A stretch of 64,000 nt of DNA from Lysobacterales bacterium. Its GTDB lineage: Bacteria > Pseudomonadota > Gammaproteobacteria > Xanthomonadales > Xanthomonadaceae. Positions 6,784 to 46,528 of the stretch are shown here, piece by piece; the stretch's first letter is position 1; each line of letters starts with the position of its first letter. The DNA lies in NCBI GenBank assembly GCA_038257155.1, contig JBBSJP010000015.1, forward strand, positions 31,542 to 95,541, given 5' to 3'. The position numbers and the translations under genes were made by a program. The notes beneath the pieces were generated by a model. That model saw nothing but the letters and a program-made list of their open reading frames with translations. It was not told where the DNA came from and did no database searches.

Positions 6784-6939
6784 CACACTCCTTGCACAAC
6801 GCACACCCGCGAATTGCGCGTTGCGGAGCAGGATCAAGGAACGAAGGCAGTCGCCCGCGCACGGGCGACGACTCCGTGCCGTCGCCCACCGCAACGCGCG
6901 CCGTGCGCGGCGCACCGACCTGTGGTCGACACGCGGCGC

Positions 6940-7115
6940 GCCCTGGACCGGTCTCCGGACTTGCAGGGCAGGCAGGCACTGGGCCTGGCTGGTGTCCGCC
7001 GTCTTCCCGGGAGCATTCCCAGTGACGTTTGGCGGACTACGCCTGCTTACCGTTGCGGGGGCAGTGCCGGACTCTCACCGGCTTCCCGAGCACCCGGGGC
7101 GGCGTGGAGTCTAGG
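6940..7115 (-). promoter_or_regulatory. Cobalamin (B12) riboswitch in 5' leader of the TonB receptor gene
   Basis: Minus-strand sequence reads ...GGGAAGCCGGTGAGAGTCCGGCACUGCCCCCGCAACGGUAAG...GUCACUGGGAA...AGCCAGGCCCAGUGCCUGCC. This matches the conserved cobalamin-riboswitch core (GGUGAGAGUCC, CUGCCCCCGCAACGGUAAG) and a B12-box-like element. Confidence 0.75.
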
Positions 7116-7137
7116 CGAAATCCATTGCACCTGTCAC

Positions 7138-32324: not shown

Positions 32325-35234
32325 TCATTCGAACCCGTCACGCAGGATGTCCTGCGGACCCATCAGCGAGGAAAAGTCGACGGCTACGCGGGTGATGTTG
32401 CCCTGCTGGTCGCGCACTTCGGCCTCGAGCTGTGCTTCTGCAAATCGCGGCAGTGGCTCGGACAAGGCCAAGGTCCAAACGCCTGGCGCGGTTTCCTGCA
32501 ACAGGTCGGCCAGTTCGCTGCCGGGTGCCCGGCCTTCAACTTCGAAGTCGGCGCGCAGCGAGAGCGAGCCGTCTTCGAGGCCGCTGTTGGCATCGGCCGC
32601 GCCGACCCGGATCTCACGCACATGCGTGCGGTTCAGTCCGGGGCGCGGCATGGAAACGGTGAGGGCGGGTCGCAAGTCGTCGAGCAACCAGCCGAACGCG
32701 GCATTGCCGGTGTCGATCGGTGCACCGAGGTCGATCCAGCGCACGAAAAGCAGCTTTTCGTCTTCACTCAGCGGCAGTGCCGGTGGCGGCGGCATCGGGC
32801 TGCCGCTGTAGTCAAGGTCGGCGCTGTTCGGATCGGCACCGAGCGGCAGGGTCGTCGCATCGCCGGGCACGGACTCGGTCGGGTGGTCGGCATTGCTCCA
32901 GCCGTCCAGACGTTCACCGTAGAGCTTCCAGATCAGCAAGGATCGACGGCTCTGGAAGGCGCGCACGTAGCGACTCGTGTTGCTTTGCCGCCAGCTACCG
33001 TTGCTGATAACCGGGGCATGGCCGAAGCGTGCGTCCTGATCGGCGGCGAGCCGGTAATAGTCGCCGGGCAGACCATCGACCTCCGTCAGGTCATTGAGAT
33101 CGAGATTGCCGGCTGCATTCGGACTCTGGTGGCAGCCTGCGCAATGCGTCTGCAGGATGGGTCGGATGTCGCGCAGGAACTCGACGTCGACATGGGAGAC
33201 CGGCTCAATGAGCAGCGCCGGCGCATCGTCCACCCGGGTCAGCAGCGGTGTCAGCTCGGACAGGTCGAAGACCGGATAGTCCGCAGCGGCAGCCGCAGTG
33301 CCTTCGAAAGCCAGCGGCTGCTGGCTGTGCGCGTGGCAGCCGCCGCAATCCACGCGCATTTCGCCGGGCCGAACCTGATGCCAGGTCTGCGCCATGTTCA
33401 GCAGCATGCCGCGGCGGTCGAGGGTTTGGAAGGTAAAGGGCGTATCGGCCGGAATCTTTGCCAGGAAACTGGTGTCCGGGTTGCCTTCGCCATCCAGCAG
33501 CGGGCCGCCGCCCTGCGCAGTCTTGCGCAAGGGGATTTCACCCAGCACGCGCAGGCGTTCGTTGGCATGGTTGTAGAACTGGCGGCCCTCATTGGGCCCG
33601 TAGCTGCGATGCGTGTTGGGCTCCATGGCGAGCAGGCGCACCGCCCAGATATCGGCATTGGAATAGGAGCCGGCATCGGAACCTTGCACGAACCAGTTGC
33701 TCGATTGGCCATTTTCGCTGGTATTGAAGGCGTCCAGCCCGTCGAAGGTGTTGGCCCAGCTGGTCACATGGCCGGGAAAACTCTCACGCTTGTAAAAGCT
33801 CGACGCACCGACCAGTCCGAAGGGCGTTCCGGCCGGCAGCTCGGCGTGCAGGCTGCCGTCATTGGGCAGCCAGGGCAATGCATCCGGTTCGGCCACGCCA
33901 TGGATGGCCGAATACGGCACCACGGCACGCGGCCAGGCCTCGTTGAAGCCGGGATCGTTCTTGATCAGCACCAGCTCTTGTGGGCTGTTGACGGTCTCAC
34001 CGTCGGCAATCAGGTACAGACCGGCGTCGTAGTAGGGCAGGGTGGTTGGACGGTTCAGGTCGTTGGCCGGTCCGGGAGTCCATACCACCAGCAGGTCGTT
34101 GCCCGGCGCAGCGGAAGGATGGGTGAACTTGCCGACCCGTACGCCGCCCGCACCGACTGGCGCCGCCTCGTCGTCACCATGGGTGAAGGGGGTGATCGAG
34201 CGCATGTCGCGCGGCTGGAACGGCATGGTGAAGTCATAGCGAAAGCCAGCACCAACGGTGCGGGCGATCGGCGGTGCGTCGGAGGCGAAAGCATCATGGA
34301 ACGGCGGTGGGCCCGGCGGCGGTGAAGGCGGCAGCCGATAGAGCGCGCCGAAGCCGTTGTTGTTCAAGTTGTAGTAGTCGACCACGACGATGTCGCCATC
34401 GCCAAGCTGGGTCATGAAGTGGAACGACTGCGGCTCGCGGAAGGCGCTGATCAAGGGATTCCAGTTGCGCCCGTCCGGCCAGATCGTCCAGATGCCCCAC
34501 AGGCGTCGGTCGCGCAGACCCTGGCTCTCGTGCGTGCTGAACATCAGCCGTCCATCGCGCAGCACGGTCGGATGCAGGGCGCTGGAGATGCTCATCGGCG
34601 CGATCGGCGTCAGGTTGCCGCCGTCCTCGTCCATCACGAAGATTTGCAGCGTGGGGTGCGTGAAGCCCTTGGGCGGCACGAAAGCGTTGCGGTTGCTGGT
34701 AAACGCGATCCTGCCGTCCGGCAGGGGCATCGGCCCAAGGTTGAGGATGCCGTAGCCAAGCCGGTTGTAGCCGGCGGGCGGGTCGAGCGGATTGGACTCG
34801 TCCCAGTTTCCCGCCCCGGTATTGGGGGTGAACTCACCATGGGTGAGGCGCTCGACACTGCGCGTGGCCAGATGGATGCGGTAGATGTCGGCCCCGGCAT
34901 AGGGAAGATCGCGCTGCGAGTTGATCGCCTCGGGCCGCATGTCGGGGAAATAACTGTAGTAGACCCACTGCGCGTCGAATGACAGCACCGGATCAGTCAC
35001 GCTGCCATTGCCACCGGCGACCAGCACTTCCTCGCTGCCGTCCGGGTGCAGCAGCATCAGATCCGCACCGGGATCGATACGTGCTGGATGGAATACTTCA
35101 GGCCATGTCGTGTTGATCTGGTCGCCGTAGCGAGGCTGGCGAACGTAGACAATGTCGTAGGGGAGCGCAGCCTGCACGGCGCTGCTGGCGAGCGCAGCAA
35201 GCAGAACGGCCAGGCGCAGCGAGAATGAACTCAT
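32325..35234 (-). CDS. Large secreted beta-propeller-like protein with two CXXCH c-type heme-binding motifs
   Basis: Start MSSFSLRLAVLLAALASSAVQA (signal peptide). ~969 aa. Two CXXCH motifs (DCGGCHAHS and THCAGCHQSP). Confidence 0.7.
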   Translation of the reverse strand: MSSFSLRLAVLLAALASSAVQAALPYDIVYVRQPRYGDQINTTWPEVFHPARIDPGADLMLLHPDGSEEVLVAGGNGSVTDPVLSFDAQWVYYSYFPDMRPEAINSQRDLPYAGADIYRIHLATRSVERLTHGEFTPNTGAGNWDESNPLDPPAGYNRLGYGILNLGPMPLPDGRIAFTSNRNAFVPPKGFTHPTLQIFVMDEDGGNLTPIAPMSISSALHPTVLRDGRLMFSTHESQGLRDRRLWGIWTIWPDGRNWNPLISAFREPQSFHFMTQLGDGDIVVVDYYNLNNNGFGALYRLPPSPPPGPPPFHDAFASDAPPIARTVGAGFRYDFTMPFQPRDMRSITPFTHGDDEAAPVGAGGVRVGKFTHPSAAPGNDLLVVWTPGPANDLNRPTTLPYYDAGLYLIADGETVNSPQELVLIKNDPGFNEAWPRAVVPYSAIHGVAEPDALPWLPNDGSLHAELPAGTPFGLVGASSFYKRESFPGHVTSWANTFDGLDAFNTSENGQSSNWFVQGSDAGSYSNADIWAVRLLAMEPNTHRSYGPNEGRQFYNHANERLRVLGEIPLRKTAQGGGPLLDGEGNPDTSFLAKIPADTPFTFQTLDRRGMLLNMAQTWHQVRPGEMRVDCGGCHAHSQQPLAFEGTAAAAADYPVFDLSELTPLLTRVDDAPALLIEPVSHVDVEFLRDIRPILQTHCAGCHQSPNAAGNLDLNDLTEVDGLPGDYYRLAADQDARFGHAPVISNGSWRQSNTSRYVRAFQSRRSLLIWKLYGERLDGWSNADHPTESVPGDATTLPLGADPNSADLDYSGSPMPPPPALPLSEDEKLLFVRWIDLGAPIDTGNAAFGWLLDDLRPALTVSMPRPGLNRTHVREIRVGAADANSGLEDGSLSLRADFEVEGRAPGSELADLLQETAPGVWTLALSEPLPRFAEAQLEAEVRDQQGNITRVAVDFSSLMGPQDILRDGFE

Positions 35235-35476
35235 GCGGATTCCTACCGGTTGAGCGGCGGACTGCTGCCGCCATGGCCCCTGATTGACCCCGCCGATCAT
35301 AGTCCTGTCCCGCTGCCGGGTGGAGGCGAGGCAGTCCAGTCCACGCAGCGTCGGAACTTGCCGACCCTCGACTCGGGCACGAGCGACCAGCGGCGCGCCA
35401 AGGTGAACCGAAGACCGGAACCAAGCCCGTTGCGGTGCGTTTGTCTGCGTCCCCGATCTACTTTCGGATCGACGGA

Positions 35477-35646
35477 CCCTAGGAGCCTGCGCGGCGGAAG
35501 CAATCGAGGCGAAAGCGAGACTGCGCGAGAGCGGAGTTTCGACGATTCGCCGGCCTGTAGTGGTTCTACAGGCCAAGAATCGGCGGAATTCCGGGCCGCG
35601 CAGGCGCGGTTGCAGCCCGGTTGTCTTCTGCCGCGCAGGCTCCTAG
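35477..35646. other. Structured GC-rich element in the 5' leader of the beta-propeller gene (long-range inverted repeat plus internal hairpin)
   Basis: CCTAGGAGCCTGCGCGGCGG (35477-35496) is complementary to CCGCGCAGGCTCCTAGG (35630-35646). Internal hairpin GCCTGTAGTGGTTCTACAGGC at ~35552-35574. Confidence 0.4.
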
Positions 35647-36824
35647 GTCCCTGCAGGCTTGGCCGCCAGCCACTGCAGCACGCTTGGGGGCAGGCTCGAC
35701 TCCTGCTGGCTTCCGCTGCCATCCACTTTTTCTGTAGACCCGCTGCGCGCTGCCAGCAGGCGCGTGGCGCGCAGGCCCAATTCATGTCGACTGGGGTCGG
35801 AGCCGCGCATCACGAAAATCAGCGCGCCCTGCGCAAGGGGCCTGATGGCGTATGCGTCGAGCAATTCTGCCTCGGCGCTCGTCGCCTGAACTGACGCCGT
35901 CGCCACCTCGCTCTGTGCATCCCAGGCTGGCGCCAGCAAGCCATCCTCGGCCAGTCCCTCAGCCTGCCCCACCGCACGCATCAGGTACGTGGCGACCCCG
36001 ACGCGCTCGGCATACGCCAGCGGCGCAAGGCTTAAAGCGGGCGCTGCGCGATAACGCACCTCGACGAACCACGCATCCGGGTCAGCGAGATCGACATCGC
36101 GGTGAACTGCCCAGCCAAGGGTTTCGTCGTCCAGGCTCACTTCGCGCAGACGAGCCACGATCAGCAAGGAACTCTTGGTGGCGAAACGGAATTCGCCCGG
36201 CAGCGCCAGGGTCGCGCCGCCGGAACCCAGCTCGATCTTGCCAAGACGGTAGGAAAGCCGGCTGGCAACCACATCCAGACTGGGAGCTTCAGGCTCGCGT
36301 TCTACCACGGGCACGCTGCGTTCGGGTTCGCGCGACGAGGTGCCGGGTGCGGAGGGCGCCGGCATGGCGCGACGAGCTGGTGGCGCAGTACTCACCCGAG
36401 GGGTTACGGGCACCTGCGGATCAGCACCCTCGGAATCGTCATACCCGGCGTCGTCGTATTCTTCCTCGTCGTAGTCTTCGTACTGCTGACCCTCGCGCGC
36501 CGCCATGATCTTGTCGGCCATTTCGGGATTGTCGCGGCGGATGCGTTCGATGTCGGCTTCAGTCATGTAGGGCGCCTGATCGAGAATGAACTGCTCGACC
36601 GCCTGATTGCCGCTGTGGAACGCCAGCGCGCCGACGATCACTGCCAGGACAAAGGGCAGGCGGATGTCGGAGGCAGGGTCGCCCCAGTGCTTGATTACCG
36701 CAATCAGCGCCGCGGGCCAGAAAAGGAACACCAGGATGGCCAGGCCGCCGCTGGCGCGCGCGGTCTTGACCGTCATCCACAGGATCAGGCCAAACAGGAT
36801 CAGCCACCAGAACGTTGCGGACAT
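35643..36824 (-). CDS. Hypothetical membrane protein (3 N-terminal TM helices, acidic linker, C-terminal globular domain)
   Basis: ATG 36824 preceded by an AGGAGT RBS. MSATFWWLILFGLILW... TM segments. DE-rich linker QYEDYDEEEYDDAGYDDSEG. Confidence 0.6.
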   Translation of the reverse strand: MSATFWWLILFGLILWMTVKTARASGGLAILVFLFWPAALIAVIKHWGDPASDIRLPFVLAVIVGALAFHSGNQAVEQFILDQAPYMTEADIERIRRDNPEMADKIMAAREGQQYEDYDEEEYDDAGYDDSEGADPQVPVTPRVSTAPPARRAMPAPSAPGTSSREPERSVPVVEREPEAPSLDVVASRLSYRLGKIELGSGGATLALPGEFRFATKSSLLIVARLREVSLDDETLGWAVHRDVDLADPDAWFVEVRYRAAPALSLAPLAYAERVGVATYLMRAVGQAEGLAEDGLLAPAWDAQSEVATASVQATSAEAELLDAYAIRPLAQGALIFVMRGSDPSRHELGLRATRLLAARSGSTEKVDGSGSQQESSLPPSVLQWLAAKPAGT

Positions 36825-36828
36825 GCCA

Positions 36829-37176
36829 TTACTCCTGGCTGATGTGCTGGATCTGCGACGGGCCAAGGCGCAGCCGCGCGTAGCCGCTCGGCAGGATCAC
36901 CCGCAGGGTGAGCGAGCGCGCATCGGCACGTTCCACACGGCCGCGTCGCGAGCGGCCATCCGACATGACCACCCGCACGTCTTGGCCCTGCATGGTGGAC
37001 AGTTGCGCAAACTCGACGCGTCGCGATGTGCCATTGCCGGGCGCGCGCGTGGCAAGGCGTTTGTTGTCGGCGACGTAGCGCGAGATCCAGCGCTCGTCCT
37101 CTTCAACGCTGGCCTTGCTTTCGGCCGGGCTCAACAGGGCTGCTGCGACAAACAAGGCCGCAATGAGTCGATACAT
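36829..37176 (-). CDS. Small secreted hypothetical protein
   Basis: Internal ATG gives MYRLIAALFVAAALLSPAESKA signal peptide. 115 aa. Directly upstream of and co-oriented with the membrane protein gene. Confidence 0.5.
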   Translation of the reverse strand: MYRLIAALFVAAALLSPAESKASVEEDERWISRYVADNKRLATRAPGNGTSRRVEFAQLSTMQGQDVRVVMSDGRSRRGRVERADARSLTLRVILPSGYARLRLGPSQIQHISQE

Positions 37177-37339
37177 GAGTTGGTTACCGTCCTGTGGGCC
37201 CATGGCTGATTGCCGGCCGGCGTGCTGCCGTATGCGGGCGCGCCCCACGCGCCGCGGCGCGGATAATGACGGTGTCTTCAGGCCTGCGCAAGTTTTCGGC
37301 CAGTTTTGCGCGGCCTGAGAGGCATGGCCAATCGCCCTG

Positions 37340-40300
37340 CTACTTCGCCGCCGGCTTGCGCGGCGCGGGCGTCCCGCCGGCCTTGTCGCGTAGTCCGCTG
37401 ATCAGCAGGTCGAGGCGCGTGGCGATGGTGGTGAGCAGCTTCTGCTGCTCGCCGCGGCCCTCGTTGCGCGCGCGGATTTCGTCAACCAGCGGGCGGAAGC
37501 CAACCTCCAGGGCTGAGCGCAGGCCGCCCAGCCACATTGCACTTTCAGTTGCGGTATCGCGCGAGAAGGTGCGCGCCAGGGCCTGCTCGCTCGCGATGCG
37601 CTGCAGCAGGTCGATCAGGGCGGGCCAATGTTCGCTGTTTGCGGCGACGTCGTCGGCGCTGGCGGGCTCGGCGCCGCGCTGGGTGCTGGCATCGGCCAGC
37701 TCGCGCAGGGCCTGGGCAAGCAGGTCGAGGCGCGCGACGACATGCTGGCCGGTTTCGGCCTGCGCGCCCTGCGCCGCACCGAGGGACGACAGGCCTCGCA
37801 CGCCCTCGACCAGGTCATGCAACTGCCCGACCACACGCACGCCGACGTCGCTGTCGGCGCCGCCCATCGATTTGTTGCGGCGGTAGTCGCGCAGGATCTG
37901 CTCCCAACGCGCCTTTTCCACATCGGTCTGGCGGCCGAGCAGTTCGGCCAGCTTGAGCAGGTTCTCTTCGGCGCCGGCGGTGAGCAACTGGGCCTCGCCC
38001 TGGTAGTGGTCGCGCAGCACCTGCTCGATGTCGGCATCGTTCATCGCCGGCGAGAGCTTCTCGGCCAGCTTGTTCATGTTGCGGTAGCTGCCCTGCAGGC
38101 GGAACGGCGGCTCGGTGCGGTAGTCGTCGTCCTGCGCCGCCGAGGCGATGTACTGCTGGTTGACCCGGAACACCGTGTCGCGCACCTGCATCAATCGCCG
38201 CAGCACGGCCTCGATCTCGCCGATCTCGGCGGCGCTGTAGGTGTGTGCCAGTTCGTTGGCGGAAAACGCCTTGCCCTCGGCCTTGGCGATCAGCTTGTAG
38301 ACATCGCTCATCTGGCGCGTGGCCAGCGGCGCCAGGATCGGATTGGAGGTGAGGCAGATCTCCACGTAGCTCATCGCGAAGGCCTCCTGCATGCCGCCCA
38401 GCACGTCGCCCAGGTTGTAGACGTCGGCGCGGTTGGCCAGCATGTCGGGAATCTTGAAGACCTCGCCGGACTCGGTGTAGGGGTTGCCCGCCATCACCAC
38501 GCAGAACTTCTTGCCGCGCAGGTCGAAGGTGCGGGTCTTGCCCTGCCAGACGCCCTCGATGCGGCGGGTGCCGTCGCACAGCGAGATGAATTTCTGCAGG
38601 AATTCCGGATGGGTGTGCTGGATGTCGTCGACATACAGCATGGTGTTGTTGCCCATCGCCAGCGCGAGATTGAGTTTTTCCAGCTCGCGCGCGGCGGTGG
38701 CATCGGGCGCCTGTGCCGGGTCGAGCGAATGCACCGCATGGCCCAGGGCCGGGCCATTGATCTTCATGAAGTTCAGGCCCATGCGATGCGCCACGTACTC
38801 CATCAACGTGGTCTTGCCGTAGCCGGGCGGCGAGATCAGCAGCAGCAGGCCCATCAGGTCGCTGCGCTTGCCTTCGCCGACCGTGCCCATCTGCTTGGCA
38901 AGGTTGTCGCCGATGATCGGCAGGTAGACCTCGCTGATCAGCCGGTTGCGCACGAAGGCGGTCAGCGGCTTTGGCTTGAATTCGCCCAGGCGCATCGATT
39001 CGCGCTCGCGCTCCAGGCGCGCGTGGCGCTGCGCGTGGTACTGCTTGAGGCCCGGCAGGAAGGCGTGGCGGTGATGCTCGAAGCGCGCCTCGAAGTCGTC
39101 CAGCGCTAGCGCCAGGCGGCCGTCCTGGATGCGCGCATGCACACCGAGCAGGCCGGCGACTTCGGTGCGCAGGTCGGCCTGCGCAATTCGATTCGGCAGG
39201 CTCTCGCCGAGCAGCAGCAAGGCGGCGGCCTCGTTGCGGTAGTCGCGCAGCGCGCCGAGCTCAGTATCGCCAAGCAGGGCGTCGAGCCAGCCCAGCAGCA
39301 GGTTCCAGCGCGCGTCCAGGCGACCATCTAGGCGCTTCAGGGTGTCCTGCAGTTCGTGCCAGGCATGCGCGGTTTCCAGGCGCTCGCGCAAGGCCTTGGC
39401 AAGCTGGGCGGCGTATTTGCTGAAGTGGAACTGCACATGCTCGGCAGCCAGTTCGTGCTGCAGATAGTCGGCTGCGCGCTTGAGGTGCACGCCGTCCAGC
39501 GGCAGTCCGCGCTCAAGGGCAAAAGCTTCCAAGGCCTGCGCGAGTTCATTGCGCAGCGCCAGACCGCCACCGCCATGACCGAACAGCTCGCGCATGCGGC
39601 GCGCGGCGCGTGCGCGTTCGGGCCAGGTCGCGGACTGCTTGTGCGAGTTGATCAGCTCGGACCAGCCGAGCAGGGCGAGGGCGCGGTCATCGGGTGCATA
39701 GCGCAATGAACCGGCCTGCGCACGCAGCGGCAGCAGCGCAGACAGGATCAGGCTGGCGTCGTGGTCGTGGATGCCCTTCTCGTAGCCCTCGCGATAGCGC
39801 GCGGAAGCGAAATCGCGCAGGCGCTGCTGCAGGCCATCGGGCTGCAGCGCGAGGCGTTCCAGCTCGCTCATGCTCCAGCCATCGCTGCCGGCTTCGGCCG
39901 CCTCCAGCACGCAGCCCGCAAGGTACTCGCCGCGATACAGCGTGGCCGATTCGGATTCCAGATCGACCGCCCAGTAATCGCGTGCCGCGTCCAGTTCCGG
40001 ATCGTGCAGGGCCTGCAGGTAATCGGTGCCGGTGAGGTGCAGGTAGAGCCCGTCCTCACGCGGCATCAGGGTGAGGTCGAGCTCCTGGCGATTGACGCTG
40101 AAGCGGTGCCGACCGAAGCGCAGGGTTTCGCCGCCGGCGTCGAACAGTTCACTGCGGTCGCGCAGCGCGCGCAGGGCCTGGTCACGCGCCGCCTTGAGGC
40201 GCGATTCGACATCGTCGGCTTTGACGTTGTCCTTCAGGCCGCGCAGGCGCTCGGCCAGATCGCGCAGCTTGAGCACCAGCGGATCGCCGGCGAAGAAGGC

Positions 40301-42736
40301 GTTGAGCTGGTCCTGGTCGGTGAGTCGCTCGCTGCGCCGCGGCAGGCCTTCCAGGATGCGGATGGCGGCATCGTGCACGCCCTGCGCCTTGCGCTGGCGT
40401 TCGTCGAGCAGCGCCTGGCGCTGGCCCTCGAAGGCTTCCAGCACTTCCTCGCGCTTGGCCAGGATGTCGCCGAGGAACTGCTCGTGCTCGCCGAACTGGC
40501 TTTCCAGTTCTTCCAGTTGCACCAGCACGCGCGCCAGTTGTTCCTCGCAGGCTTCCGGCTCGCGTGCCTGCGACAGGGCGCTGGCGACACTCTGGCCAAA
40601 CAGCTGGAACTGCGCGCCGAACTGCGCCACGGCCTCCGATGAGCCGAGTGATTTGCGTCGTTGCTCGGCGCGCGCGCGGGCCTGGTTGAGGCGGGCATAC
40701 AGTGCCGAGATCGCCTCGACCACGCGGGTGCGTTCGGCCGCGTCTTCGACCGGCAGGCTGCCCATCAGGTTCGACAGCATGTCGAGATCGGAGCCCAGGT
40801 CAGCCAGGCCCTTGAGCGGCTCGCGCAGCTGACCACCGCTGCTGGCGGCCTGCGCCTTCGTATCCAGCGCAGTCAAACGGTCGCCGAGCGGTGTCAGCGC
40901 GGCGGGACTGGCGACGAAGCTGCCAGTGGCCTGGCCGGTGCGCTGCTGCGCCTCGAGCAACTCGGCCTCCATCGCGTCGATGGCGGCCACGTCGATGTAG
41001 CGGAAGTCGCGGATCGTCAGCAGGCGGCCGCGCAACGCGGCGATGCCGTTCAGCGCGTCGACGTAATCCTGCACCTTGTCCCAGCGCTCGGGCTGCAGCG
41101 ACTTCAGCAGTGCAGCCTGCTGCGTGCGCGCTTCAGTCAGGGCCTGCTCGGACTGACGCCGGATGCTGACGACTTTCTCGTACTCGTCGAGCACCTGTTC
41201 GCTGGTCGCGGCGATCTCGCGCACCAGGCTGGCGGCGCCCTGGCAGTTGCTGTCGTCGACCCAGTGGTGCAGGTCGAACAGGCGACGGGTCTCGGCCACC
41301 AGGCGCTCGAAGCGCTGCGCCGAGATGTCGGTCGATTCGATTTCGCGCGCCACGCCGAGCAGGTCGGACAGGCCGCGTACCAGTTCGGCATTGCCGATCT
41401 TGCCCATGAAGCTGGTGCGCGGCGGCTGGCGCGCGGCGAACTCTTCGGTGGTGAAGGGCGTTTGCCAGATCTGCATCGGATGCACGCGCGTGGCTTCGGC
41501 GCTCTCGGCGCTGAACACCACCATGCGGCCGTCCTCCATCATGGCGTAGCCATGCGCGAAGATCGGCGTCTGCAGGCGACGCTGGATCAGGTTGTAGGTG
41601 AACAGCGCGAAGCGGCCTTCCTCGGGCTCGTAGAACACGTACAGCACGTCTTCGCCATTCGGCGAACGCAGCACGCGCTTGAAACCCATGCCGTCCATCG
41701 AGCGTTCGAAGCGGCGGTACTCGCCGTTCTGCAGCACATAACCGCCGGGGAACACGATGCCGTGGTCTTCCGGCAACTGGATGCAGGCCGCGCCGATGGC
41801 ATCAATGCGCAACACGCTTTGCGTGATGCGGTTGTAGACCAGGTAGCGCCAGACCTCTTCGCGATAGGGCAGCACCCGCAGCAGGATGAGGCTGCCGACC
41901 TGGGCGAACTCGACGATCGCGTCGTCGAGCGACTGGGTCTTGTCGGCAACTGGCTCGCGGTACACGCCGAGGCCGTCTTCGGTGTTGTTCTCGACCTTGA
42001 CGGTGAGGTCGCCGGCAACGGTCTCGACGAACACGGTGTCGAGGATGTTCAGATGCGGGTGGCGGCCGTGCACCGCGTGCTCGCGCGTGCAGCGTGTCCA
42101 CTCGAAGTCATAGGCCGGCGGCGGCGCGATGTCGCGTTCGCCGCGGTTGTCGATGTAGCGGATCTGGCTGCCGTCGGACGAGACGTTCCAGCGAAACACG
42201 CGCACATCGGTCAGGCGCTCGCCGATCTGGAAGCTGGCCAGCAGCTTGCCCTGCCGCACCACCAGCTGCAGCAGGCGGGTGTGCTTGTAATAGGCGTACA
42301 GCTCGCGGAAATCGTTGCGGAAATCGGGCGCATCGAGAAAGCTGCCCGCGACCGGCACTGGCTCGCCTTCGAAGCCCTCGCCCTCCTCTTTCAGGCGATA
42401 GAGCGAGAACACATCCTCGACAACGGTTTCCTTCTTCAGCCCGATGAAGACGTTGTAGCCGAACAGCAGCAGATGCCCGACCTGCACGATATCGCGCGCC
42501 GCACAGTTGTTCTCGGTGCGCACCCGCAGCCGCCCGGCGACAGCCATCTCGCTGCTGCCGAACTCGGCCAGGCGCTGGGTGTTGAGCGCATCGACCACAC
42601 CCGCAAGCCGCGAGCCCTGTTCAACCAGGCGCTTGTGCAGCACTTCGTAAGCGCCACCTTCGGTGACGGCGCGGTCGACATTGCTGGTATCGGGGGTGGG
42701 GTTGGTCATGGGGCGAGTTTCAAACGTGTGAGACAT
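37340..42736 (-). CDS. Giant (1798 aa) protein with a single central AAA+-like P-loop ATPase module and extensive helical regions
   Basis: Uninterrupted 5.4-kb ORF. Walker A LISPPGYGKTTLMEYV, Walker B-like MLYVDDIQH, sensor-like VVMAGNP. Long helical Glu/Arg/Leu-rich stretches. No signal peptide. Confidence 0.85.
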   Translation of the reverse strand: MSHTFETRPMTNPTPDTSNVDRAVTEGGAYEVLHKRLVEQGSRLAGVVDALNTQRLAEFGSSEMAVAGRLRVRTENNCAARDIVQVGHLLLFGYNVFIGLKKETVVEDVFSLYRLKEEGEGFEGEPVPVAGSFLDAPDFRNDFRELYAYYKHTRLLQLVVRQGKLLASFQIGERLTDVRVFRWNVSSDGSQIRYIDNRGERDIAPPPAYDFEWTRCTREHAVHGRHPHLNILDTVFVETVAGDLTVKVENNTEDGLGVYREPVADKTQSLDDAIVEFAQVGSLILLRVLPYREEVWRYLVYNRITQSVLRIDAIGAACIQLPEDHGIVFPGGYVLQNGEYRRFERSMDGMGFKRVLRSPNGEDVLYVFYEPEEGRFALFTYNLIQRRLQTPIFAHGYAMMEDGRMVVFSAESAEATRVHPMQIWQTPFTTEEFAARQPPRTSFMGKIGNAELVRGLSDLLGVAREIESTDISAQRFERLVAETRRLFDLHHWVDDSNCQGAASLVREIAATSEQVLDEYEKVVSIRRQSEQALTEARTQQAALLKSLQPERWDKVQDYVDALNGIAALRGRLLTIRDFRYIDVAAIDAMEAELLEAQQRTGQATGSFVASPAALTPLGDRLTALDTKAQAASSGGQLREPLKGLADLGSDLDMLSNLMGSLPVEDAAERTRVVEAISALYARLNQARARAEQRRKSLGSSEAVAQFGAQFQLFGQSVASALSQAREPEACEEQLARVLVQLEELESQFGEHEQFLGDILAKREEVLEAFEGQRQALLDERQRKAQGVHDAAIRILEGLPRRSERLTDQDQLNAFFAGDPLVLKLRDLAERLRGLKDNVKADDVESRLKAARDQALRALRDRSELFDAGGETLRFGRHRFSVNRQELDLTLMPREDGLYLHLTGTDYLQALHDPELDAARDYWAVDLESESATLYRGEYLAGCVLEAAEAGSDGWSMSELERLALQPDGLQQRLRDFASARYREGYEKGIHDHDASLILSALLPLRAQAGSLRYAPDDRALALLGWSELINSHKQSATWPERARAARRMRELFGHGGGGLALRNELAQALEAFALERGLPLDGVHLKRAADYLQHELAAEHVQFHFSKYAAQLAKALRERLETAHAWHELQDTLKRLDGRLDARWNLLLGWLDALLGDTELGALRDYRNEAAALLLLGESLPNRIAQADLRTEVAGLLGVHARIQDGRLALALDDFEARFEHHRHAFLPGLKQYHAQRHARLERERESMRLGEFKPKPLTAFVRNRLISEVYLPIIGDNLAKQMGTVGEGKRSDLMGLLLLISPPGYGKTTLMEYVAHRMGLNFMKINGPALGHAVHSLDPAQAPDATAARELEKLNLALAMGNNTMLYVDDIQHTHPEFLQKFISLCDGTRRIEGVWQGKTRTFDLRGKKFCVVMAGNPYTESGEVFKIPDMLANRADVYNLGDVLGGMQEAFAMSYVEICLTSNPILAPLATRQMSDVYKLIAKAEGKAFSANELAHTYSAAEIGEIEAVLRRLMQVRDTVFRVNQQYIASAAQDDDYRTEPPFRLQGSYRNMNKLAEKLSPAMNDADIEQVLRDHYQGEAQLLTAGAEENLLKLAELLGRQTDVEKARWEQILRDYRRNKSMGGADSDVGVRVVGQLHDLVEGVRGLSSLGAAQGAQAETGQHVVARLDLLAQALRELADASTQRGAEPASADDVAANSEHWPALIDLLQRIASEQALARTFSRDTATESAMWLGGLRSALEVGFRPLVDEIRARNEGRGEQQKLLTTIATRLDLLISGLRDKAGGTPAPRKPAAK

Positions 42737-42748
42737 TCAAGCCCCTCT

Positions 42749-42840
42749 CCCGCCGGGAGAGGGGTTGGGGAGAGGGGCAAACGGAGCCCGAAGCTTTGGG
42801 CAAGTCCAGCCCCTCACCCCCGCCCCTCTCCCGTGGGGAG
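42749..42840. repeat. Pair of GC-rich hairpins sharing the stem CCCCTCTCC...GGAGAGGGG (REP-like)
   Basis: CCCCTCTCCCGCCGGGAGAGGGG at 42749-42771 and CCCCTCTCCCGTGGGGAGAGGGG at ~42818-42840, immediately after the giant gene's start. Confidence 0.65.
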
Positions 42841-42880
42841 AGGGGAGCGAAGCGGAACGGCCCAGCACCACTCCAGTTTC

Positions 42881-43051
42881 CCGTTCGTGGTGAGGAGCGA
42901 TCGAGGCATCCGCGCAGCGGATGACCGAGAGCGCGTCTCGAACCACATGCTGGATGGTTCGAGACGCCACCTCGTTCGGCCGCCAACGCGGCTGCGAGGC
43001 GCTGCGCGCCTTCGCGCTGCGCGCGCCTCGATGGCTCCTCACCACGAACGG
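42881..43051. repeat. Nested inverted-repeat element (MITE/REP-like) between flotillin and giant ATPase genes
   Basis: 26-bp terminal IR CCGTTCGTGGTGAGGAGCGATCGAGG (42881-42906) versus its complement at 43026-43051 (25/26 match). Inner palindrome GCGTCTCGAACCA...TGGTTCGAGACGC at ~42932-42969. Confidence 0.65.
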
Positions 43052-43105
43052 TTTATGGGGGAGGCTCATGGCAGCAGTTCAAGCAATCAAGAACCCAGCG
43101 CTCGC

Positions 43106-45064
43106 CTATTCCTCCCCACCCTTCTTCGGCACCTTGCGCTTGCCCTCATCCCCATCGCTCTTGCCCAGATACTTCGCCAACAAGTCCTGCACGATTGGAC
43201 TTTTGCCGGCAATGCCTTCGATCGCCTTGCCCACCGACAGCGACCTGGCAAAGGAATTGAAGAAGTCGCCCTCGCCGCCAACGATGTCGATCTTGGCCTT
43301 GGACAGCGCCGCCGACAGCACTTCGGCCTGTTCGCGTGCGATGTCCTTGCTGGCATCGATCGAGGCAATCGCCTGCTCGAAGTTCTTTTCGAGCTGCATG
43401 CGGAATTCCTCGTGGGTGCGGGCACCGTCGTCGAGCTTGGATAGCGCATCAAACTTCTCGGTGAGGCCCTTGGCCTCGGCCTGGAACTTCTGCAGCAGCA
43501 CATCGGCCTCGGCCGTGCCCTGCTTGCGCCAGGCCTCGGCCTTGGCTTCGGTGACGCGAGCCTGGGAAAGGCCCTTCTCCTGTTCGCCGCGCGCTTCAGC
43601 CATCAGTTGCTCTTCGAGCGACTTTGCTTTGGCCAGTCCCTCGCGTTCGGTCGCCGCGGCGCCAACCTCGCGCACCCGCGCATCGGCCAGGCCCGGCGCG
43701 GCGCGCTCGGCCTCGGTGCCTTCGGCCATCTTCTTCTTGCCCTCGGACTGCTTGCCTGCGGCTTCCAACTCGGCTTGCGCCAAGGTGGTGATCTCGATCG
43801 CCTTGTGCTTGGCCTTTTCCTCGTCGGCCTCGGCCTGCTTGACCTGGCGCACCAGTTCTTCTTCGGCCATCGCCTGGGCATTGAGGATCGCGACCTGCTT
43901 GGCGCGATCGGCAAAGGAAACTTCGCGAACTTCCTTGATGCGCTCCTCTTCCTGCGCCACGGATTTCTCCACCACGATGCGCTCGCGGATCACCCCGGCG
44001 ATGATCTGGCGCTGTTCTTCCAGGGCTTTTTCCTTTTCGATGCGCTGCAGCTCGACTTCACGTTCCCGGGCCACCTGCTCCAGGGCCTTGGCGCGGGCCA
44101 CCTTCTCGACTTCGATCACCACCGCGCGCTGACGGTTCTGCTGCGCCACTTCCACTTCGCGTTGGCGGTTCTCTTCGCGGATCTCGATGGTTTCCTGGGT
44201 CTGGATGCGGGCCTGCTCGGAACGCAGGCGCTCTTCCTCCTGAACCTTCTTGGTTTCGGCCTGTTCGCGCGCCTGGATGGTTTCGATCTCGCGCTTCTGG
44301 CGCGCCTCGGCGTCGGCCTGCTGGCGCTCCAGCGCCAGGGTCGCCTCGCGCGTCTCGACGTTCTTCTTCTTCATCGCCAGCTCTTCGTTGCGCTCGAGCT
44401 CGTTGGTGATGACGTTCTGCGCGGCGGTCAGCTCGGTGATCTTGCGGATGCCCTCGGCATCGAGGATGTTGTTGGGATCGAGCGAGGACTTCGGCGTCTG
44501 CTCCAGGTAGTCGATCGCCACGTCTTCCAGCACGTAGCCGTTCAGATCGTTGCCGATCACTTCCACGATGCGGTCGCGGAATTCCTGGCGGTTCTCGAAC
44601 AGCTTGACGAAGTCGATCTTCTTGCCGACCGTCTTCAGCGCCTCGGAGAACTTGGCATTGAACAGTTCGTTCACCGCGCCCTTTTCCGAGGCGCGATCCA
44701 CGCCGATCGCCTTGGCCACTTTCAGCACGTCCTGCTGGGTCTCATTGACGCGCAGGTAGAACGCCACCGTGATGTCGGCGCGCATATTGTCCTGGCAGAT
44801 CAGCCCATCCTTGCCGCGCCGGTCGACCTCCAGCGTGATCAGGGAGATCTTCATGAACTCCTTCTTGTAGACCACCGGGTACACCAGGGCGCCGGTGAAG
44901 TGCACCTTGGGAGTGGAAGACAGGTCGTTGACGATCAGCGCGGTGCCCTGCGGGACCTTGATGTAGAAGGCCTTGAACAGGGCGAACAGGCCCACGATCA
45001 CGACGACAACAACGCCAAGTCCGATCAGGAACGGCATCAGGAAGGCAAGATCCATGGCAAACAC
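43106..45064 (-). CDS. Flotillin-like SPFH/band-7 protein (YqiK-like) with extended coiled coil
   Basis: N-terminal TM hairpin (LAFLMPFLIGLGVVVVVIVGLFALF). SPFH domain (YIKVPQGTALIVNDLSSTPKVHFTGALVYPVVYKKEFMKISL...). ~350 aa EA/EQ/K-rich coiled coil. Confidence 0.85.
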   Translation of the reverse strand: MFAMDLAFLMPFLIGLGVVVVVIVGLFALFKAFYIKVPQGTALIVNDLSSTPKVHFTGALVYPVVYKKEFMKISLITLEVDRRGKDGLICQDNMRADITVAFYLRVNETQQDVLKVAKAIGVDRASEKGAVNELFNAKFSEALKTVGKKIDFVKLFENRQEFRDRIVEVIGNDLNGYVLEDVAIDYLEQTPKSSLDPNNILDAEGIRKITELTAAQNVITNELERNEELAMKKKNVETREATLALERQQADAEARQKREIETIQAREQAETKKVQEEERLRSEQARIQTQETIEIREENRQREVEVAQQNRQRAVVIEVEKVARAKALEQVAREREVELQRIEKEKALEEQRQIIAGVIRERIVVEKSVAQEEERIKEVREVSFADRAKQVAILNAQAMAEEELVRQVKQAEADEEKAKHKAIEITTLAQAELEAAGKQSEGKKKMAEGTEAERAAPGLADARVREVGAAATEREGLAKAKSLEEQLMAEARGEQEKGLSQARVTEAKAEAWRKQGTAEADVLLQKFQAEAKGLTEKFDALSKLDDGARTHEEFRMQLEKNFEQAIASIDASKDIAREQAEVLSAALSKAKIDIVGGEGDFFNSFARSLSVGKAIEGIAGKSPIVQDLLAKYLGKSDGDEGKRKVPKKGGEE

Positions 45065-45133
45065 TCCGAGGCGATGGACGAACAGTGGCGGCGGCGCCCT
45101 GCGGCGATGCCGTGAAGCAGGAAGTGAAACGGG

Positions 45134-45760
45134 TCAGGCGGCGTGCTTGGCGATCACGCGGTAGGCATTCTGCAGCGTCAGGTATTCCACTAGTACCACT
45201 TCGTCACCGCGTGAGAATTGGCCAGGGTCAGCGCGGACCTGCAGGACCAGTCCTGCACCGCCGTCCTCCAGATTCGCGGTTCCCTGCGAATCGGTGACAT
45301 GAGGGCTGCGCACGATGGCGATCTTGCCGAGCAGGGATTCGCTGTCGGTGGGCTTGAGCTTGGCAAATAACGGTGACAGCGGGCGCAGTGCCAGGCCGGT
45401 GATCGGCATGGCAACAACAACAGCGCCCAACAGCAGGCCGGAACCGAGGGCATAGCGCATCACTCCGGTGCCCAGGTGCTGCAGCAGGAACAGGTCGACG
45501 AAGTAGGTGAGCAGCCAGCCAAAAAATATGAAGCCGGTAGCGATCAAGGTCACCGGCACCCCATCCAGGCCCCATTTCATCAGCAGGCCGGCAACACCGC
45601 CAACATCCAGATCCATACCGTCCGGCATGGGCGCGAAATTCAGGATCTCCAGATCGATCAGGCCGATCATGGCCATCATCCAATAGATCACCGCCACCGC
45701 CAGCAGAACGCTGAAAACCACGGTGGGAAATGAAAGCGCGATTTGCAGGAACTCGTCCAT
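45134..45760 (-). CDS. YqiJ/NfeD-like inner-membrane protein (flotillin partner)
   Basis: Start MDEFLQIALSFPTVVFSVLLAVAVIYW. Multiple TM helices then a C-terminal OB-like segment (GKIAIVRSPHVTDSQGTANLEDGGAGLVLQVRADP...GDEVVLVEY). 69 bp upstream of the flotillin gene. Confidence 0.7.
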   Translation of the reverse strand: MDEFLQIALSFPTVVFSVLLAVAVIYWMMAMIGLIDLEILNFAPMPDGMDLDVGGVAGLLMKWGLDGVPVTLIATGFIFFGWLLTYFVDLFLLQHLGTGVMRYALGSGLLLGAVVVAMPITGLALRPLSPLFAKLKPTDSESLLGKIAIVRSPHVTDSQGTANLEDGGAGLVLQVRADPGQFSRGDEVVLVEYLTLQNAYRVIAKHAA

Positions 45761-45918
45761 GGTTCGAAGGCCCCCCGACGGCGTCTTTACGTTCCGAGAC
45801 AGCTGGAAGGATAGGCAATAGCGGCGCCGCGCGCCATGTCCCGGAGGGCAGGCTTGGTTTTCGGCTCGCCTGCCCCAAGAGATTTCGGTTACCCGTGGCT
45901 GAAACTGACTACCCATCC

Positions 45919-46169
45919 TCCGTTCGCACTGAGCGTAGCTGGCCGCAGGCCGGCGAAGTCGAAGTGCCTACCGCGTGTCCTTCGACTTCGGCCCCGCGGG
46001 CCTACGCTCAGGACGAACGGGTGTGGTTGGGCGGATGGGTGGTGCTGTCTGAGTCAATCTCTCCATGCCGTTCGCACTGAGCTTGGCTGGCCGCAGGCCG
46101 GCGAAGTCGAAGTGCCTGCCACGGGTCCTTCGACTTCGACCCCGCGGGCCTACGCTCAGGACGAACGGG
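45919..46169. repeat. Two tandem ~100-bp hairpin-forming repeat units (REP/MITE-like)
   Basis: Unit 1 at 45919-46022 and unit 2 at 46068-46169. Each has terminal IR CCGTTCGCACTGAGC(G/T)T.G...CTACGCTCAGGACGAACGG and inner IR GAAGTCGAAGTGCC...CTTCGACTTC. Confidence 0.8.
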
Positions 46170-46242
46170 CTGGCGAACAGGTGACGCCCCGCCGTTGTCT
46201 CGATACCATCGACCAAACCTCAACAAAGCCCTCGATAGCCCC

Positions 46243-46491
46243 ATGTCAGAAAGCCGCGACTACCTCGAGATGTCCTTCAAGTCGATCGAGTATTTCGCCA
46301 AGGACGGACGCCTGCATGCGCACGAGCTGGAGCAGCTCTACGCGCTGGCAATGCGCGATGGCAAGCTCGATGCCAATGAGGTGCGGGTGCTGAAGTCGGT
46401 GATCGATCGCATCCGCCCGGAGGAACTCGACGACGCGATGAAGGTGACGCTCGGTGAGATTACGCGCCGGCTCGGCAAGCCGGGCGGCTGA
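46243..46491 (+). CDS. Small hypothetical protein (possibly TerB-like helical)
   Basis: ATG 46243, 82 aa, MSESRDYLEMSFKSIEYFAKDGRLHAHELEQLYALAMRDGKLDANEVRVLKSVIDRI... Confidence 0.45.
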   Translation: MSESRDYLEMSFKSIEYFAKDGRLHAHELEQLYALAMRDGKLDANEVRVLKSVIDRIRPEELDDAMKVTLGEITRRLGKPGG

Positions 46492-46528
46492 GCCCGCCCA
46501 ACAAGGGCGCGCTGCCACCGACGGTGGC

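Follow-up and report, generated by a model that had tools for sequence, protein, structure and literature searches.

Introduction

SPFH cages partner AAA+ machines, as in HflK/C-FtsH, in prohibitin with the m-AAA protease, and in SLP2-YME1L-PARL. Ravi et al. (2024; mSystems, PMC11237479) have reported a bacterial operon in which genes for PspA and a CesT-like protein precede those for a YqiJ-like protein, a flotillin, and an AAA+ ATPase that bears a beta-propeller and a coiled coil, together with abbreviated operons that lack PspA. These authors propose a role in chaperone-like membrane dynamics, draw an analogy to Snf7/Vps4 for the PspA-associated AAA+ ATPases, and suggest that the abbreviated operons work with PspA encoded elsewhere; neither a mechanism nor an experiment is given, and TerB-like, TelA, and rhomboid neighbors do not appear in the main text. 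In Pseudomonas aeruginosa, the bacABCDEF genes are transcribed together, as RT-PCR shows for bacD-bacE-bacF, all of which are 6-13-fold up in a bacA mutant (Wallart et al., 2024; PMC10948618). PA3728-PA3732 respond to phage infection with increased expression (PMC12041424), a PA3731 mutant has defects in biofilm formation, swarming, and virulence (PMC2587700), and deletion of the P. aeruginosa flotillin gene paFlo3 causes only ~20% less biofilm and no strong stress phenotype (PMC13086221).

Here, we analyze a locus in a 64,000-nucleotide stretch of Lysobacterales DNA (the window, by which we mean that whole stretch), on the minus strand of which lie three co-oriented genes for a YqiJ-like protein (208 aa), a flotillin (649 aa), and an AAA+ protein (1798 aa). 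An earlier note, made from the letters alone, had proposed that they form an undescribed membrane-microdomain module. The three ORFs are all found where the note had placed them, but the operon had already been described, PspA-less abbreviated forms included (Ravi et al., 2024; PMC11237479). The genes are real and belong together, as a short form of the described bacC-bacD-bacE membrane-stress operon, and we think it rather probable that the locus represents a minimal, three-gene (bacC-bacD-bacE type) version of a conserved envelope-stress operon.

Results

The first gene (45134-45760, minus strand) encodes a YqiJ/short-NfeD-like inner-membrane protein with N-terminal transmembrane (TM) helices followed by a beta-rich soluble C-terminal domain. 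Its start had been placed at M53 of a longer ORF, which is right, the orthologs in P. aeruginosa, in the 94%-identical relative L083, and in other genomes starting there as well. It is 49% identical to P. aeruginosa PA3730 (BacC; E = 2e-58) and is matched by no Pfam model, including those for NfeD (PF01957) and YqiJ (PF07290 and PF21001); YqiJ_N is matched by only 1 of 21 orthologs (E = 0.018). When a profile of the 21 orthologs is aligned with E. coli YqiJ by hhalign, a probability of 90.8% is obtained (E = 1.2e-6, 137 collinear columns), i.e., the apparent kinship of the window protein to YqiJ is visible only through profile comparison. The Hymenobacter counterpart is named DUF1449 (YqiJ family) by NCBI, and a PDB sequence search with the YqiJ-like profile returned no match.

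The second ORF spans 43106-45064 and extends to a GTG at 45064; translation most likely begins, as in the orthologs, from the ATG at 45055, which gives a protein of 649 aa (43106-45055, minus strand). An N-terminal TM segment is followed by a Band-7 domain and a long E/A/R/Q-rich coiled coil, and the protein is 75% identical to its ortholog PA3729 (BacD/PaFlo3) and 29% identical to E. coli YqiK over 461 aa (E = 5e-38). At full length it has no match in Pfam or NCBIfam, and its N-terminal 228 aa, scanned alone, match Band_7 (PF01145) at E = 2.6e-7, so that the TM helix, Band-7 domain, coiled coil, and homology to a named flotillin that characterize an SPFH/flotillin protein are all present. No match was found in a PDB sequence search. 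Among the sampled loci, the flotillins are 43-79% identical, and the window's protein belongs to a distinct, ATPase-linked subfamily.

The third gene (37340-42736, minus strand) is, as the earlier note had read it, an uninterrupted ORF of 1798 codons; its product is the ortholog of P. aeruginosa PA3728/PA14_16190 (BacE; P0017), with 66% identity. The sequence around the ATPase core, previously assigned to no nameable family, does match known families in a Pfam profile search: PF12458 (DUF3686; E = 9.5e-202, 670.8 bits against a cutoff of 25, profile positions 2-448 of 448) and PF25472 (DUF7902; aa 613-696, at 40649-40900 on the minus strand; E = 3e-22, 79 bits against a cutoff of 26). Pfam AAA is matched with 30.8 bits (cutoff 21.2), and AAA_5 likewise scores over its gathering threshold. 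With full-length coverage, a C-terminal AAA part, and a length within ~1600-1900 aa, the protein is a member of the DUF3686/DUF7902 giant family. The 120 best database homologs are 62-94% identical to it and share its architecture, and family members are encoded in at least 586 of 185,579 species genomes, those of P. aeruginosa, Stenotrophomonas, and Proteus among them.

The core had also been described as buried in ~1700 aa of helical sequence, and this description has to be revised: aa ~65-425 (41462-42544, minus strand), inside the DUF3686 match, are beta-rich and are predicted to form a beta-propeller. An AF2 model of aa 1-950 (mean pLDDT 79.7) contains about 26 strands, and the top PDB matches of this N-terminal model in Foldseek are propellers (KLHDC3 kelch, Ski8 WD40, sialidases, PON1, and prolyl oligopeptidase; E = 1e-6 to 1e-4). 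In front of the predicted propeller lies a long helix (aa 16-59), and aa ~430-860 form a ~430-aa helical/coiled-coil region enclosing DUF7902; in all, the protein has ~900 aa of helical scaffold. When the giant ATPase was used for a PDB sequence search, nothing was found past the Walker A region. The protein is soluble, with no TM segment, and the earlier suggestion of a cytoplasmic scaffold or remodeler is therefore reasonable.

The family carries another label in the databases ("ATPase involved in DNA repair" for DUF3686 in Pfam, "DNA repair ATPase" in NCBI, the latter also the name given to the giant ATPase), and one may ask whether the protein is a repair ATPase that adjoins a flotillin gene incidentally. 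There is local Walker A similarity to RuvB, and in Pseudomonas recJ lies a few genes downstream. The RuvB models, however, reach 21-24 bits against cutoffs of 282-299, in the Walker A region only (~45 residues around the P-loop for the match with 23.7 bits against 282), and a Pfam scan of the giant ATPase found no nuclease, helicase, or DNA-binding domain; the gene for YaeQ, which adjoins recJ in P. aeruginosa, is present in only 7 loci, all of the Pseudomonas group, against a flotillin linkage that is universal (see below). Assignment as a RuvB or SMC/RecN-like repair ATPase was likewise rejected, since no family-level HMM match and no DNA-processing domain were obtained. Because neither DUF3686 nor PF12458 is mentioned in any paper returned by a literature search, the "DNA repair" name has no traceable experimental basis, and we regard a repair function with incidental flotillin adjacency as hardly credible.

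The three ATPase motifs quoted earlier each occur once (GYGKTT at aa 1305, LYVDD at aa 1367, and VVMAGNP at aa 1413), and no second P-loop is found in the 1798 aa, in agreement with the claim of exactly one ATPase core. In this single AAA+ module (aa ~1290-1560; 38057-38869, minus strand), the motifs follow each other in canonical order, from Walker A (SPPGYGKTT, aa 1302-1310) through Walker B (LYVDD, aa 1367-1371), sensor-1 (N1418), and a candidate Arg finger (R1436, in PDMLANRAD) to a candidate sensor-2 (R1552, in QGSYRNM). Among 46 sequences, with identities as low as 32%, none of SPPGYGKTT, LYVDD, N1418, R1436, and R1552 varies. Walker B ends in DD, not DE, which may imply slow hydrolysis. 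It should be noted that the AAA+ fold match is weak and assigns no clade, and that the AAA+ part of the model has moderate confidence only; in this weak match, Vps4 is not the closest AAA+ fold.

Across related loci, a flotillin gene lies directly upstream of the ATPase gene, on the same strand, in 78 of the 78 loci that have upstream DNA, and 72 of 81 loci have a YqiJ-like gene on the upstream side of the flotillin gene, neighborhood counts that refer to the 80 best-matching loci (46-67% identity) and not to a random sample of the family, which comprises ~740 DUF3686 clusters. The sampled loci come from Proteobacteria, Myxococcota, Acidobacteriota, and Actinomycetota; in Bacteroidota and Deinococcota (Hymenobacter and Deinococcus), and also in Streptomyces, the genes again stand in the order YqiJ-like, flotillin, giant ATPase. 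The gene order thus kept, together with the flotillin gene in 78 of 78 loci, supports the proposal that the giant ATPase is tied functionally to the flotillin/NfeD-like pair; homologs that never adjoin SPFH/NfeD genes, the pattern that would speak against it, are not what the comparison returned.

Other neighbors recur less regularly: PspA (YjfJ type) in 42 of 83 loci, its DUF2170/CesT-like partner in 41 of 83, a PLD (HKD) gene in ~16 loci, where it follows the ATPase gene, TelA in 13, and rhomboid and TerB-like genes in 12 each. These recurrent neighbors are all membrane-stress genes, and the recurrence of TerB-like, rhomboid, and TelA genes beside the module is a minor addition of the present comparison. 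The window has the 3TM YqiJ/YuaF-like gene upstream of the flotillin gene, the flotillin-AAA+ arrangement, and, by the AF2 model and the Foldseek propeller matches, the ATPase N-terminal architecture of the operon type of Ravi et al. (2024). The CesT/Tir-like DUF2170 and PspA/IM30 genes upstream and the PLD gene downstream that make up a full bacABCDEF operon are missing, so that the window holds the abbreviated form. Searches of the 64 kb by tblastn and profiles found no PspA, DUF2170, PLD, TelA, or rhomboid gene.

[quoted passage not shown] (PMC11237479). Since PspA, DUF2170, PLD, TelA, and rhomboid genes are all missing, a PspA-centered mechanism cannot be asserted for the window. We consider the Vps4-like reading unlikely.

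Between the flotillin and ATPase genes lies a spacer of 369 bp (42737-43105), which is rich in palindromes, as had been noticed, and contains several inverted repeats. The earlier note had offered two interpretations of these repeats, a mobile-element footprint and separate regulation of the two genes, of which the former is borne out. A 171-bp MITE-like palindromic element (42881-43051; inverted repeat I2), bounded by 27-nt terminal inverted repeats (CCGTTCGTGGTGAGGAGC...) that are 96% complementary, is missing from the spacer of the 94%-identical relative L083, which measures 175 bp; the extra length is a recent insertion, and it is because of this insertion that the spacer reaches 369 bp. 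Two GC-rich hairpins (CCCCTCTCCC-N-GGGAGAGGGG; 42741-42845, inverted repeats I1 and I4-I7) sit just 5' of the ATPase start codon, are also present in the L083 spacer, and are not followed by a T-run.

Separate regulation, i.e., an ATPase gene that is regulated and acts apart from the flotillin pair here, uncoupled by the repeat-filled spacer, would be in line with a spacer longer than that in 83% of related loci and with the hairpins and the MITE-like insertion that it holds. At the same junction, L015 and L036 carry selfish genes of 2-3.4 kb, which suggests that expression of the ATPase is possible without tight coupling. Against this, no terminator-like or sigma-70-like site beyond chance is found in the spacer, the added length is the insertion missing from L083, the gene order is conserved in all related loci, and in P. 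aeruginosa co-transcription extends across the orthologous junction (PMC10948618). With a median of ~105 bp over 78 loci and 4-bp overlaps of the flotillin and ATPase genes in some lineages, the junction gives no indication of separate regulation, and uncoupling appears quite improbable. In a scan of 36700-46500, no sigma-70-like or terminator-like signals stood out above shuffled sequences. In a consensus search, the intergenic region yielded no sigma-54-like site; the consensus has 54 matches against ~40 expected by chance, and the single nearby match (46360-46375) is inside a coding region. Rfam models matched nothing in the whole window but an unrelated cobalamin riboswitch.

Upstream, the neighbors are a divergent small gene and SCO1, and the wider flanks of the window hold housekeeping genes (SCO1, a peptide ABC transporter, and TPR). 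The small gene (46243-46491, plus strand), divergent from the YqiJ-like gene, encodes an 82-aa TerB-like protein that is recognized by a profile from 11 other loci (E = 1.2e-36); TerB itself (PF05099) is matched below threshold, the best member scoring 23.8 bits against a cutoff of 24.4. A TerB-like homolog is located between the flotillin and giant genes in 5 loci and directly after the giant gene in 2, making the protein a candidate accessory component of the module. A resemblance of the TerB-like protein to the N-terminus of PLD (hhalign probability 64%, 38 columns) is too weak to be claimed.

Downstream, the small secreted protein and the membrane protein of the earlier note are both present on the minus strand, the former with ~115 aa and a signal-like N-terminus (36829-37176), the latter with ~400 aa and N-terminal TM segments (ORF 35643-36866). 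Neither matches a Pfam family, and homologs are found only in the closest relatives L083 and L084 and in none of 80 other loci; the two genes are lineage-specific and were rejected as module members, their membership being doubtful.

Defense systems often contain large ATPases that carry propeller and coiled-coil sensor domains, a fact that could favor a reading of the locus as an anti-phage or abortive-infection system, in which the ATPase would sense infection and membrane or PLD-type effectors would kill or protect the cell. The rise of PA3728-PA3732 on phage infection (PMC12041424) and the PLD gene after the ATPase gene in ~16 loci point the same way; the classic Psp membrane-stress response, however, is also phage-induced. 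The six proteins have no meaningful match in PADLOC, where only P-loop-level similarity to IetA and mad8 was seen (E = 0.003-0.03, ~28 residues), and homologs occur in none of 50,697 phage records and in only 13 of 72,556 plasmid records, most of which are megaplasmids or chromosomes filed in error. As the flanks moreover hold housekeeping genes and no defense island, we judge a defense function very improbable.

Discussion

The locus is best read as an envelope-stress module with a flotillin/YqiJ platform at which a soluble AAA+ remodeler is active. The flotillin, held by its one N-terminal TM anchor, and the YqiJ/NfeD-like protein would form an SPFH platform or cage at the cytoplasmic face of the inner membrane, and the 1798-aa protein would contact it and assemble, probably as a hexamer, via its single AAA+ module. 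Through ATP hydrolysis, the giant ATPase could then act on protein assemblies at the stressed membrane by remodeling, extraction, or disassembly, possibly in membrane repair, with the flotillin assembly, its clients, or (where encoded) an ESCRT-III-like PspA polymer as putative targets.

A possible, if speculative, extension is that the three-gene core is a self-contained machine that parallels HflK/C-FtsH but is soluble and non-proteolytic, with an SPFH cage to which a propeller-bearing AAA+ ring of ~1.2 MDa is recruited. Such a ring would act on membrane proteins or on the cage, by extraction or remodeling, and would be combined in different lineages with exchangeable effectors and adaptors (PspA/CesT, PLD, rhomboid, TelA, and TerB-like proteins), the docking adaptor being the TerB-like protein and perhaps also a related PLD N-terminus.

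The DUF3686 family, widespread and strictly flotillin-linked under a database name that is probably misleading, is the obvious candidate motor for remodeling of bacterial SPFH/flotillin assemblies. The system in the window is of a known kind, a clean instance of the minimal three-gene form, and the recurring TerB-like, rhomboid, and TelA neighbors could guide experiments.

Compared with the abbreviated band-7/flotillin, YqiJ/YuaF, and AAA+ operons of Ravi et al. (2024), the window differs in nothing of kind. The order and orientation of bacC, bacD, and bacE in P. aeruginosa bacABCDEF (PA3732-PA3727; Mace 2008, Wallart 2024) are the same in the window, which lacks bacA (DUF2170/CesT-like), bacB (PspA), and bacF (PLD) and, unlike bacABCDEF, has a divergent TerB-like gene upstream, two lineage-specific genes downstream, and no evident sigma-54 site. 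E. coli yqiJK is a membrane pair of two genes, ordered as in the window, with YqiK a clear and YqiJ a remote homolog, but no AAA+ gene follows yqiK. As for ESCRT-III/Vps4, about half of the related loci encode a membrane-remodeling polymer (PspA) together with the AAA+ ATPase, whereas in the window PspA is missing, and the ATPase has no MIT domain. Finally, with HflK/C-FtsH and the mitochondrial prohibitin/SLP2 AAA-protease complexes the window shares the combination of an SPFH scaffold and an AAA+ machine, and the rhomboid gene added in 12 related loci echoes SLP2-YME1L-PARL; no homology to the SPFH-linked AAA proteases was detected past the AAA+ fold, and, in contrast to the FtsH type, the window's AAA+ protein is soluble, lacks a protease domain and a TM segment, and carries instead a predicted beta-propeller and the ~900-aa helical scaffold.

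The module is a known operon type

The region 37340-45760 holds three genes in the same orientation on the minus strand, encoding a YqiJ/NfeD-like membrane protein (45134-45760), a flotillin (ORF 43106-45064) and a giant ATPase (37340-42736, an uninterrupted ORF of 1798 codons), and the co-oriented ORFs, single-copy ATPase motifs and repeat-filled 369-bp spacer previously read from the sequence are confirmed. The internal ATG chosen then for the 208-aa YqiJ-like protein is borne out by its orthologs, which begin at the same MxxFLQ motif. For the flotillin, the ATG at 45055 (649 aa) is the most likely start, since the same length is called in L083, a 94%-identical relative.

The earlier note's description of the module as undescribed does not hold. 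Ravi et al. [quoted passage not shown] 2008), later extended to bacABCDEF (Wallart et al. 2024, PMC10948618). The module is therefore of a known but mechanistically uncharacterised operon type, to which the window adds a minimal-form member; literature searches for DUF3686 (PF12458), the Pfam family of the ATPase, returned no paper.

The full-length flotillin has no Pfam or NCBIfam match; Band_7 is visible only in its first 228 aa (E 2.6e-7), so that automated annotation of such flotillins may miss the SPFH domain. It is 29% identical to E. coli YqiK (E 5e-38) and 75% identical to PA3729. The small membrane protein gave no match in Pfam and no similarity to E. coli YqiJ by BLASTP; it is 49% identical to PA3730, a 21-ortholog profile aligns collinearly with YqiJ in hhalign (90.8% probability, E 1.2e-6), and its Hymenobacter counterpart is labelled DUF1449, YqiJ family, by NCBI.

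The giant ATPase combines one AAA+ module with a predicted propeller

The giant protein, for which no family had been recognized, matches Pfam DUF3686 ('ATPase involved in DNA repair') from end to end (E 9.5e-202), with further matches to DUF7902 (aa 613-696) and to AAA and AAA_5 (around aa 1298-1425). GYGKTT (aa 1305), LYVDD (aa 1367) and VVMAGNP (aa 1413) each occur once, and neither a second P-loop nor a TM-grade hydrophobic segment was found in the 1798 aa. Homologs number in the thousands, many carrying the NCBI name 'DNA repair ATPase', and the one in P. aeruginosa is 66% identical; for the DNA repair activity that the Pfam and NCBI labels imply, we found no support beyond a P-loop-level match to RuvB. 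Searching with the protein's N-terminal 520 aa against 1.84 billion cluster representatives returned 740 clusters, in which full-length members measure 1550-2036 aa. One copy (59% identity) is carried by the 425-kb plasmid pQBR103 of P. fluorescens SBW25 (NC_009444.1 92404-97332).

Modelled with AlphaFold2 (mean pLDDT 79.7), aa 1-950 comprise a long helix near the N-terminus (aa 16-59), then a domain rich in beta strands (aa 65-425), ~430 aa of helices and a small beta domain. Foldseek matched the beta-rich domain to beta-propellers (kelch, WD40, sialidase, PON1 and prolyl oligopeptidase), so the earlier reading of the ~1700 aa as helical fails for the N-terminal fifth, a predicted propeller. 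The protein is soluble, with one conserved AAA+ module that appears competent, plus a predicted propeller and coiled coils.

Flotillin and ATPase genes are strictly linked

Scanning one genome per species gave at least 586 relatives of the ATPase, and the best 80 loci were kept, so that the neighbourhood counts describe best matches rather than a random sample; these loci come from Gamma-, Beta- and Zetaproteobacteria, Myxococcota, Acidobacteriota, a Clostridia MAG and Actinomycetota. Far from never adjoining SPFH/NfeD genes, the ATPase gene is immediately preceded by a co-oriented flotillin homolog in 78 of the 81 non-window loci searched by tblastn; the other three are contigs that start with the ATPase gene. 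By the same search, 72 loci have a YqiJ-like gene ahead of the flotillin, 38 have PspA and 37 have DUF2170 (opposite-strand copies in 4 loci each), and 16 have a PLD gene downstream of the ATPase. All-against-all ORF clustering left the core unchanged and brought PspA up to 42 loci and DUF2170 up to 41. Gene order is kept in annotated records from Hymenobacter (Tir chaperone, PspA, DUF1449, hypothetical protein, 'DNA repair ATPase'), Deinococcus and Streptomyces ('flotillin family protein', 'DNA repair ATPase'). The P. aeruginosa series runs DUF2170 (PA3732), PspA_IM30 (PA3731), the 213-aa PA3730, the 688-aa PA3729 and the giant ATPase PA3728, followed by PLDc_2 and then YaeQ, RecJ and LasB. 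Among these best-matching loci the flotillin and ATPase genes are linked about as strictly as genes can be, and the strict three-gene linkage strongly supports the partnership of the two proteins proposed earlier.

Several accessory genes recur, and the main text of Ravi et al. 2024 (PMC11237479) makes no mention of TerB, TelA or rhomboid. TelA genes (13 loci, PF05816 E 1e-73) lie downstream of the ATPase, mostly in Xanthomonadales without PspA, and rhomboid genes (12 loci, PF01694 E 1.7e-18) directly after it; loci with neighbours of these types include L003 (15214-15780) and L034 (16077-17180). In 12 loci a gene for a ~115-aa RHH-like protein separates PspA from the YqiJ-like gene. In 12 of 83 loci the module adjoins a gene for an ~80-aa protein with two DGxLDxxE-type repeats and a sub-threshold TerB match; this gene lies between flotillin and ATPase in 5 and right after the ATPase in 2. 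In the window it is a divergent neighbour (46243-46491, plus strand; profile E 1.2e-36), and it recurs in L003 (9604-9843), L008 (9632-9874), L017 (9567-9827), L021 (9622-9861), L031 (15464-15700), L032 (15408-15638) and L068. The small protein's resemblance to the N-terminus of the PLD is too slight for kinship to be asserted.

The window carries a minimal form

Whereas the P. aeruginosa bac operon includes DUF2170, PspA and PLD genes, profiles built from the related loci found no PspA, DUF2170, TelA, rhomboid or RHH-like gene in the 64-kb window, which is a minimal form of the module. Upstream, on the opposite strand, are the gene for the TerB-like protein, here 82 aa, and SCO1/SenC, then TPR-protein and peptide ABC-transporter genes. 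The ~115-aa and ~400-aa genes downstream match no Pfam family, and their homologs are confined to the two closest relatives (ATPases 94% and 82% identical), the other 80 loci having none; these are lineage-specific genes of doubtful membership in the module. Just past them, a 1083-aa protein (32325-35576, minus strand), not found at the corresponding position in L083, matches the hydrazine synthase alpha-subunit middle domain (PF18582, E 1e-11), far under the equivalog cutoff. A cobalamin riboswitch (RF00174, 85.2 bits) lies at 6929-7129 on the minus strand.

In 78 loci the flotillin and ATPase genes are a median of ~105 bp apart, the gap shrinking to a 4-bp overlap at its shortest, and the 369 bp of the window, filled with inverted repeats, fall in the top sixth. 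The ATPase start codon is closely preceded by a pair of GC-rich hairpins, CCCCTCTCCC...GGGAGAGGGG (42741-42778 and 42809-42845), that have no T-run; both are present in the 175-bp spacer of L083 (9826-10000). A 171-bp palindromic, MITE-like element with 27-nt terminal inverted repeats (42881-43051) is missing from that spacer, and two tandem 102-bp copies of a similar element, 94% identical (45920-46021 and 46068-46169), stand upstream of the YqiJ-like gene and share its CCGTTCG...CGAACGG termini. The extra spacer length is thus a MITE-like insertion, in line with the second of two earlier suggestions, a mobile-element footprint; in a promoter and terminator consensus scan of the spacer, nothing stands out. 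Elsewhere the junction holds the TerB-like gene or selfish genes, and it tolerates large insertions of the latter: NYN-domain and HepT genes in L015 (6600-9990) and two PDDEXK_2 transposase genes in L036 (7950-9990).

A candidate SPFH-ATPase partnership

The module combines strict three-gene linkage with a context of membrane-stress genes. The orthologous P. aeruginosa operon is co-transcribed, co-regulated and induced by stress: RT-PCR products span every bacABCDEF junction, bacD-bacE included, and all downstream proteins rise 6-13-fold when bacA is mutated (Wallart et al. 2024, PMC10948618). Phage infection induces PA3728-PA3732 (PMC12041424), and deletion of paFlo3 (PA14_16180) gives mild phenotypes only (PMC13086221). 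That the module is an anti-phage defence system is unlikely: PADLOC returned no matches above P-loop level, the ATPase has no phage copies and few plasmid copies (only 13 plasmid records, pQBR103 among them), and the flanks are housekeeping genes.

We favour a membrane role, in which the flotillin and YqiJ-like proteins would build an SPFH platform at the membrane's inner face, and the ATPase would oligomerise, dock on this platform and, under envelope stress, remodel assemblies associated with the membrane. As the primary target, the flotillin assembly or its clients are favoured over PspA, because PspA lies outside the invariant core and is missing from the window. SPFH cages pair with AAA+ machines in HflK/C-FtsH, in prohibitin with m-AAA and in SLP2-YME1L-PARL. 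The proposed module would parallel these pairs, and likewise the pairing of ESCRT-III with Vps4.
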